Assembly: GCA_035084275.1 (NCBI GenBank)
Contig: CM068744.1
Coordinates: 12,772,001 to 12,836,000 of the forward strand
Reading direction: 5' to 3'
Origin: Hydrolagus colliei
Lineage: Eukaryota
Length of the DNA: 64,000 nt
Part shown: positions 48,535 to 49,193 of the stretch, piece after piece
Numbering within the stretch: the first letter of the stretch is position 1
Layout of the letters: each line of letters opens with the position of its first letter
Translations under genes and position numbers: made by a program
Notes under the pieces: model-generated
Told to the model about the DNA's origin: nothing
What the model saw: the letters and a program-made list of their open reading frames with translations, nothing else
Databases searched by the model: none

Positions 48535-48645
48535 ATGTTTCAACCTATTATTTTACTTATTCTCATCCTTGTATTATTTTCATCGTTGTCTTACGCTACC
48601 ATATTTAAATTAGTTTTTCTTTTCACACTTTTCTTTGTTCTGTAG
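48535..48645 (+). CDS. SOGA3: SOGA3/MTCL3 last coding exon, C-terminal hydrophobic membrane anchor
   Basis: Acceptor ttacttgtccag|, reads [39 protein letters not shown], essentially the SOGA3 C-terminus as I recall it. Confidence 0.95.
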
Positions 48646-49193
48646 AATCCCCATCTTCTTCAGTGTACTACCTTTTTAGTTTGTTTTATTTATTTTAATA
48701 CCCCATCAAGAAAACAGCCAATACAAAATAATACACAACAGGATCATGAATCACCATTTGCAAGGCTTTGTAAAATACTGGAGAGACTAACAATTTTTCA
48801 ACATGGATTATTACATGCAACCATTTGGTAAGTGGTTTTATAAAGTGATCCTCTCTATGACTCTGTGATATTGGAATATGAACTCTTGAAACATCATTGC
48901 TCTACTCTTCACTTCATGTATGTTACTTATAATGGATAAAAAATACTACTTATCATGCTATGTAGAAATGACTGAGAACAAGAAGCTTATTTCCATCAGT
49001 TTGACTCGACGGCATGCTTCATCACACAAATTACTTTCTTGGGCCATGGAAATTAGAGAAATTCTTATCCAACCACGTGATACTGTAAATATCTTCACCT
49101 GTGAAATAAGTGCGCGAGTCACTGGTTGTTTCCTATCTACTACTAGTTGTACTGTATATCTGTGTAGTTCAGAAAATTTAAAGCAGAGTTGGA

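Follow-up and report, generated by a model that had tools for sequence, protein, structure and literature searches.

A stop codon that probably doubles as an alternative acceptor behind the MTCL3 anchor of cartilaginous fishes

In the window analyzed here (64,000 nucleotides of Hydrolagus colliei DNA), the TAG that ends the MTCL3 (SOGA3) reading frame probably also supplies the AG of an alternative acceptor, whose use deprives the protein of its predicted membrane anchor. A contig from a closely related animal uses this acceptor, as do gene models from five cartilaginous fishes, and it is likely used in the window's species too. A donor 182 nt behind the stop codon likely leads on to the downstream gene KIAA0408. 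To our knowledge, MTCL3 is almost unstudied, and it is commonly drawn as a single anchored protein.

The anchor exon and its stop codon

Judged by its PF11365 domains, its nearest named relatives (MTCL3/SOGA3), and the presence of KIAA0408 downstream, rather than by a tree, the gene appears to be the MTCL3 orthologue. Its large coding exon (46813..48027, plus strand; donor CAG|GTAAAT at 48028) encodes two SOGA coiled-coil domains (Pfam PF11365, E=1.8e-63) and shows an identity of 98% to a Callorhinchus model and, over the searched residues 250-405, of 96% to shark MTCL3/SOGA3. Contigs of a close relative (organism A) that cover this exon run from 46811 to 48024-25 plus shared letters. A GT..AG intron (48028..48534, plus strand) leads to the tail exon (48535..48645, plus strand; acceptor CAG at 48532-48534), which holds a hydrophobic tail of 36 codons and the stop TAG at 48643-45. 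The tail is almost unchanged in 83 of the best 120 homologues, reaches a Kyte-Doolittle 19-residue maximum of 2.6, has one Lys as its only charged residue, and forms one helix (residues 2-35) in a single-sequence structure model. Hydrophobic and placed at the extreme C-terminus, it is a predicted C-terminal anchor, which may instead be a hairpin.

The last 10 codons and the TAG (48613..48645, plus strand) make up the pyrimidine tract and AG of a second acceptor, with an exon start at 48646. A first-pass annotation of the sequence had drawn attention to this site, and all of its coordinates hold (acceptor, tail, TAG, 61 open codons, donor, and phase 2). It also called the polypyrimidine tract excellent. 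By rank this is true, in that the AG at 48644 has 16/20 pyrimidines upstream, a count equalled or exceeded at 31/4337 AGs of the plus strand (the usual acceptor AG at 48533 has 15/20, with 76/4337), but the richness is no more than the amino acids force: the 25/30 pyrimidines of the last 10 codons are reached in 25% of 20000 random synonymous recodings (P=0.25), and the accompanying caveat that Phe/Leu codons are pyrimidine-rich anyway was correct. Synonymous identity with a paralogue on C2 (described below) showed no significant excess (7/10 in the last 10 codons vs 9/24 earlier, P=0.09). Since a quarter of recodings equal the tract and the paralogue comparison is not significant, selection on the tract is not demonstrated, and we rejected it as unsupported. 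An acceptor at the stop is also not universal, as the same exon of a fish-like orthologue (L012) ends in TGA, hence without the stop acceptor; this orthologue comes from a metagenome contig, one locus among the 584 candidate stretches listed in a metagenome scan.

No run recorded as RNA matched this stretch, but ten runs of presumed RNA from organism A did, and the evidence they give is assembled contigs, not levels. Runs X1, X2, and X4 of organism A and a raw single-cell run of organism C (X16) were placed on 46700-52000. In X2, contig 6 (839 nt, depth 13.8) covers 47287-48025 and then directly 48644-48737; this corresponds to the junction 48027>48646 that the first-pass annotation had proposed to search for. 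This skip form is the only form assembled in X2, where depth over the anchor bin is 0.23. In X1, a contig of depth 285.7 contains the 507-nt GT..AG joint 48027>48535 and runs unbroken through 48646. The X4 contig at the end of the large exon covers 47921-48025, with 105 of its 182 letters placed, and in X16, with a depth below about 5 over the gene, no joint was seen there.

Gene models show the same choice. Among 23 named chondrichthyan MTCL3 models, 14 are anchored, eight use the stop acceptor, and one reads into the intron. The eight belong to five species, Callorhinchus (XP_007897503.1), Mustelus (XP_078069681.1), Chiloscyllium punctatum (four models, XP_072412111/14/15/16.1), and the rays Mobula birostris (XP_072107655.1) and Narcine (XP_069743064.1), and they read SQ|N.H.L; four of the best 120 homologues read SQ|N.H in place of the anchor. 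The proposed comparison of the TAG across chondrichthyans thus found the stop acceptor in models from a holocephalan, sharks, and rays. In C. punctatum, both anchored and stop-acceptor models are represented. One donor (48027) joined to two acceptors, as in the organism A contigs and the Chiloscyllium models, is an alternative 3' splice site event, and the idea that the stop TAG is also an acceptor is borne out by the X2 contig and by the models of five cartilaginous fishes. These models are predictions, but they leave out a near-invariant exon for which homology would have argued, an omission that suggests transcript support. Organism A shares a 2-nt difference with the Callorhinchus model, so the two are perhaps one species and may not be independent evidence, which is the main weakness of the case, as the remainder is annotation. 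Anchor-less models also exist in birds (NCSR..) and in turtles and frogs (IRS..); these are protein models, and their acceptors may lie elsewhere than at the stop.

The acceptor is therefore already in automatic annotation, as database isoforms, and we found it undescribed in papers. The RefSeq models of cartilaginous fishes come from automatic annotation and share the 48646 acceptor, several together with the donor discussed below; the corresponding segment of the window is two bases longer than that of the Callorhinchus model. The literature searched, which covered a limited set of passages and listings, yielded no description of a stop-codon acceptor in the anchor exon.

The 182-nt segment, its donor, and KIAA0408

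The segment 48646..48827 (182 nt, plus strand) opens the 3'UTR of the anchored form and is a coding exon in the anchor-less form. The frame is open over 48646-48828, for 61 codons, and is then closed by a TAA at 48829-31. When the segment is shuffled, such a frame arises in 1.1% of cases, and 9% of the real windows within 48646-60500 contain one, so it is only modestly unusual. The DNA of the segment is conserved in sharks and rays, but its reading frame is not: shark and ray tails follow frame 0 for ~12 residues and then frame 1, or frame 2 in rays; organism A and the Callorhinchus model are 2 nt shorter at 48781 (180 vs 182 nt); the donor has phase 2 here, phase 0 in Callorhinchus, and, by inference, phase 1 in two sharks; and two rays have a stop just before the donor. 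In all six species examined the frame is open for 58-62 codons, though shifted, and both annotation and clustering favour such long frames. In frame and phase, 48646-48827 does not behave as a conserved protein-coding cassette exon, and the 61-codon peptide, whose conservation the first-pass annotation had proposed to check in other chondrichthyans, is not conserved, as the frames shift. A Pfam search of the 61-mer gave no match, and a conserved new peptide was rejected as a candidate after a search with the Mobula tail returned two candidates, both from rays. The new tails, weakly hydrophobic (0.7-1.3; Chiloscyllium 2.1), include no conserved replacement anchor. It is the splicing that is conserved, and not the new peptide.

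The segment ends at a donor, GTAAGT at 48828..48833 (plus strand; TTG|GTAAGT), one of five G|GTAAGT on the plus strand of the window; it contains the TAA that closes the 61-codon frame when the donor is left unspliced. X1 contig 1 (depth 285.7) ends exactly at 48827, and the unspliced UTR is represented by a contig of depth 66.8 that begins at 48799. By arithmetic on the two bins around the donor, a depth of ~150-270 is left in X1 on the last bases before the donor, as for a spliced partner contig, and ~77% of X1 contig depth, itself a poor measure of level, leaves at 48828. An RNA 3' end at 48827 is unlikely, given that the nearest AATAAA is at 49194. Further poly(A) hexamers lie at 49859 and 51735, and the unspliced 3'UTR has a candidate poly(A) signal in the AATAAA at 51018..51023 (plus strand), close to the end of an X2 contig piece at 51016. 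Among the models, the Chiloscyllium isoforms P0005/P0124, P0125, and P0127 diverge three ways right after YMKPL, and the Chiloscyllium and Mustelus continuations after KPL start with a residue of a G-initial codon, as a split codon would; these continuations had no convincing tblastn match, either in the window or in the 39 kb that follow it. Altogether, the contig end at 48827 in organism A and the models of other cartilaginous fishes indicate that the donor is used. L012 has a donor as well (AAG|GTGAGT at +214 after the TGA stop, the only G|GTRAGT in 5008 nt). Thus, of the conservation expected for GTAAGT, use of the donor extends to shark and Callorhinchus models and a GTGAGT to L012, but the phase varies by species. 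An apparent similarity between the UTRs of L012 and the window (score 76 vs 40.6 ± 9.7; 0/500 shuffles) was discounted because single-base shuffles ignore low complexity.

The first-pass annotation left out where this donor leads, which is probably the KIAA0408 unit. The Callorhinchus model P0267 (XP_007897503.1, later superseded by a 935-residue KIAA0408-only version) follows 48027>48646-48827>59252 and then continues into KIAA0408, its residues 652-691 matching 59252-59371 at 72.5%. The search for a junction 48827>downstream has therefore found the donor side in the X1 contig, but the partner exon in models only. Turtle models join a non-anchor segment to KIAA0408, in frame in five and out of frame in five, and the in-frame fusions span three genera. 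In human, an MTCL3 (SOGA3)-KIAA0408 read-through RNA has been described as a likely NMD candidate (10.1101/2025.08.01.668123). According to the CCDS definition, a read-through involves two distinct genes on the same strand and a transcript that shares exons or splice sites with both (PMC3308164, whose excerpted text does not mention the MTCL3-KIAA0408 locus). Here the two partners are distinct genes on one strand, with an own start (60931) and first exon (55772) for KIAA0408, and the sharing of exons with both genes is complete in model P0267 alone, while the contigs give the donor side.

KIAA0408 is a unit of its own, as indicated by its conserved start and by the first exon of the Callorhinchus model P0269. 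The first main coding stretch (60931..61254, plus strand) begins with MWNAFG, has in-frame stops upstream of its ATG at 60931 in the window, and is 79% identical to residues 1-114 of Callorhinchus KIAA0408; MWNAFG-like starts occur in coelacanth, bichir, bowfin, gar, sturgeon, and shark proteins. More exons lie beyond the window (L003, L004), and an exon of the unit in L003 contains PF14818. The start of P0269, MKATLTLR, is the translation of 55772-55794 joined to 59252. The end of this first exon and a candidate promoter element together span 55570..55794 (plus strand): a perfect palindrome, GTTACCATGGCAAC, stands at 55570, ~210 nt before the consensus donor at 55795. The motif, chosen after the site had been seen, matches once in the window where 0.01 matches are expected. 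We take the palindrome to resemble an RFX X-box, and it is a candidate for an own, cilia-type promoter of the unit. KIAA0408 has been linked to cilium initiation in human neural progenitors (10.1101/2025.08.01.668123).

In Callorhinchus models, a 121-nt exon (59252..59372, plus strand; tandem AG, second start at 59255) receives both the 48828 and the 55795 donors. P0267 and P0269 read this exon in two frames, of which the window is open only in that of P0269. In the window, joining 48827 to 59252 produces a TGA stop, and with acceptor 59255 the frame is computed to stay open as far as 59372 (phase 0). Were the segment 180 nt long, its frame would still meet a stop in the next exon of the window. 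The statement that acceptor 48646 continues downstream thus stands as far as the junction and the in-frame Callorhinchus model go, but in the window the join makes a TGA.

Only two copies of the anchor exon were found in the genome. The second lies at C2:72444071-72444181 (minus strand; L002/L011), 2.85 kb behind a matching exon and upstream of a PF14818 exon; it also ends in TAG and is identical to the window's exon in 35/36 residues and 88/111 bases. No GTRAG donor is present within 700 nt of its stop. We take this paralogue to be MTCL1-like. MTCL1 and MTCL2/SOGA1 combine N-terminal coiled coils and PF14818 in one gene, and MTCL3 and KIAA0408 match the two halves. As all three elements (PF11365, the anchor exon, and PF14818) are likewise present in the C2 gene, MTCL3 and KIAA0408 seem to represent the halves of a single MTCL-type gene, on the evidence of domain content rather than a tree. 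The depth of X4 is 19.9 over the anchor bin (48470-48646) vs ~2 on either side, and may stem from a transcribed paralogue anchor exon in organism A.

A proposed mechanism and its rivals

In the mechanism that we favour, the upstream exon (ending at 48027) would choose between the AG at 48533-34 and the AG at 48644-45. The Phe/Leu/Val codons would give the U-rich tract as a by-product and the TAG would give the AG, and donor 48828 would be used or left independently of the acceptor choice. Acceptor 48535 with the donor unused would yield anchored MTCL3 with a long 3'UTR, the junction of which is seen in organism A; with the donor used, it would encode the same protein, with an intron 182 nt behind the stop and KIAA0408 exons downstream. 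Acceptor 48646 with the donor unused would yield an anchor-less protein with a 61-residue tail, its junction seen and its end at TAA 48829 deduced; with the donor used, it would meet the TGA at the join here, a predicted NMD target, and would give an in-frame fusion in the Callorhinchus model. Of the three outcomes listed by the first-pass annotation, the anchored form and the 48646 junction are seen and the third (48535 plus the donor) is a predicted NMD target; a fourth had been left out, in which 48646 is used, the donor is not, and the frame ends at TAA 48829-31.

NMD acts on a stop codon located >50-55 nt upstream of an exon junction. The 182 nt from the end of the stop (48645) to donor 48828 exceed this distance, so the form with 48535 and the donor is predicted to be an NMD target, as had been suggested. 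However, this form is apparently the main one in X1, and its ~77% of depth, weak as contig depth is as a measure, fits badly with efficient decay and is unlike a rare, destroyed form. As to function, the site likely lets tissues choose anchored MTCL3 or else a soluble or degraded form, judging from one run each in which the anchor is included (X1) or skipped (X2). Use in the window's species, tissue control, membrane insertion, and NMD are what we infer here. In mouse, the last exon of Mtcl3 changes after PTBP2 depletion (10.64898/2026.01.30.702498), which may or may not be the 48646 event.

The rival readings overlap partly with the one that we favour. A possible, though rather doubtful, one is that the stop acceptor is a tolerated, leaky by-product whose products are noise, with only the 3'UTR donor and the read-through being old; the cryptic site would leak where the anchor exon is weakly defined, in low-expressing tissues. 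The tract is indeed wholly explained by the amino acids, the peptide and the phase are not conserved, L012 has TGA while its donor persists, and the skip form comes from a low-depth run (13.8) and was not seen in the deep one. Moreover, a U-rich tract with a downstream AG is a ready cryptic acceptor in reporters (PMC12297286). Against this, holocephalan, shark, and ray models have the same acceptor, which argues that the TAG was kept across those lineages; the skip form is the only one assembled in X2; and the frame is open for 58-62 codons in six species, although annotation favours long frames.

It is unlikely that MTCL3 and KIAA0408 are a split MTCL gene in which the anchor exon is a switch, with an acceptor made of its own codons and stop that removes the anchor, giving anchored, soluble, or rebuilt full-length MTCL by tissue. 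The UTR donor would then re-join the halves in some lineages (Callorhinchus, some turtles, and here via 59255), the full-length form would carry the ciliary-base KIAA0408 half, and the frame would be kept open while its sequence drifts.

We consider it improbable that the spliced read-through functions as a two-gene mRNA, or as a further route to KIAA0408 expression, and largely escapes NMD. The ~77% of X1 contig depth that leaves at the donor fits such an escape, though contig depth is a poor measure of level; the donor is kept in the fish-like L012, and a human read-through is reported (10.1101/2025.08.01.668123). On the other hand, the stop lies 182 nt before the junction, with more junctions behind it, and KIAA0408 has a candidate promoter and first exon of its own.

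Least credible is a true coding linker in 48646-48827 that fuses anchor-less MTCL3 to KIAA0408 and rebuilds an MTCL1/MTCL2-like protein: P0267 is a single frame of 1656 residues that contains PF11365 and PF14818, a pair also present in the single C2 paralogue, fused in-frame models exist in three turtle genera, and with acceptor 59255 the frame in the window is open up to 59372 (phase 0), but the donor phase differs (2 in the window, 0 in Callorhinchus, and presumably 1 in two sharks), a stop precedes the donor in two rays, the main acceptor 59252 gives a TGA in the window, in-frame stops precede ATG 60931, KIAA0408 has its own conserved start, and P0267 was later revised.

Related systems and further observations

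PTPN2 (TC48/TC45) and CUX1/CASP produce anchored and soluble isoforms by last-exon alternative splicing. MTCL3 is alike in that one gene gives forms with and without a C-terminal hydrophobic anchor, but here the anchor codons and the stop themselves form the competing acceptor, and the tail that takes the place of the anchor is not conserved. A TAG is also both stop and acceptor AG in NAGNAG acceptors at which a TAG stop is either included or skipped. Their AGs are three bases apart, whereas the MTCL3 acceptors are 111 nt apart (48535 vs 48646), so the site is not a NAGNAG stop acceptor, and the choice removes the whole anchor. The human MTCL3-KIAA0408 read-through has the same gene pair and order and is likewise a likely NMD candidate; the excerpted account leaves its splice sites unnamed and the stop-codon acceptor unmentioned (10.1101/2025.08.01.668123). 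MTCL2 reaches the Golgi via its N-terminal coiled coil and microtubules via its C-terminal region, and this account, in its excerpted text, mentions no anchor exon and terms MTCL2 the single paralogue (10.1101/2021.09.07.459224). SOGA3 is enriched with the CLASP1 C-terminal domain (PMC10443533).

The observation is thus largely real, partly old, and built of known parts (alternative acceptor, UTR intron, read-through); with isoforms already in databases, the surprise is moderate. Should the acceptor be regulated, the products of MTCL3 also include forms without the anchor, and much of its mRNA may extend into KIAA0408, with consequences for knock-outs, probes, and expression counts of both genes. 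More generally, the codons of a C-terminal hydrophobic tail followed by TAG are a trap, as they make a ready acceptor, which is checkable across tail-anchored genes.

Several minor features were noted around these exons. If donor 48028 is left unspliced, the frame (48028-48045) ends VNQY-stop, a further anchor-less ending, and an extension into this intron is present in 14 of the best 120 homologues. In some models from tetrapods and fishes, the donor of the large exon lies 9 nt further upstream (PLS| vs PLSVSQ|); at the matching place the window has ATC (Ile), in a comparison that included L012:2490-2500. Many bird models (15 of the best 120 homologues) insert KVTDA before the anchor. Inside the KIAA0408 unit, a near-identical LINE reverse-transcriptase tail occurs twice in tandem (L004:1-818 and L003:8934-9998), as a recent duplication or an assembly repeat. 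Finally, an open frame with a signal-peptide-like start at 15930-16325 (minus strand) is likely an exon of a neighbouring gene, presumably one for a LEG1-like protein; SOGA3 is named nine times in a LEG1 paper.
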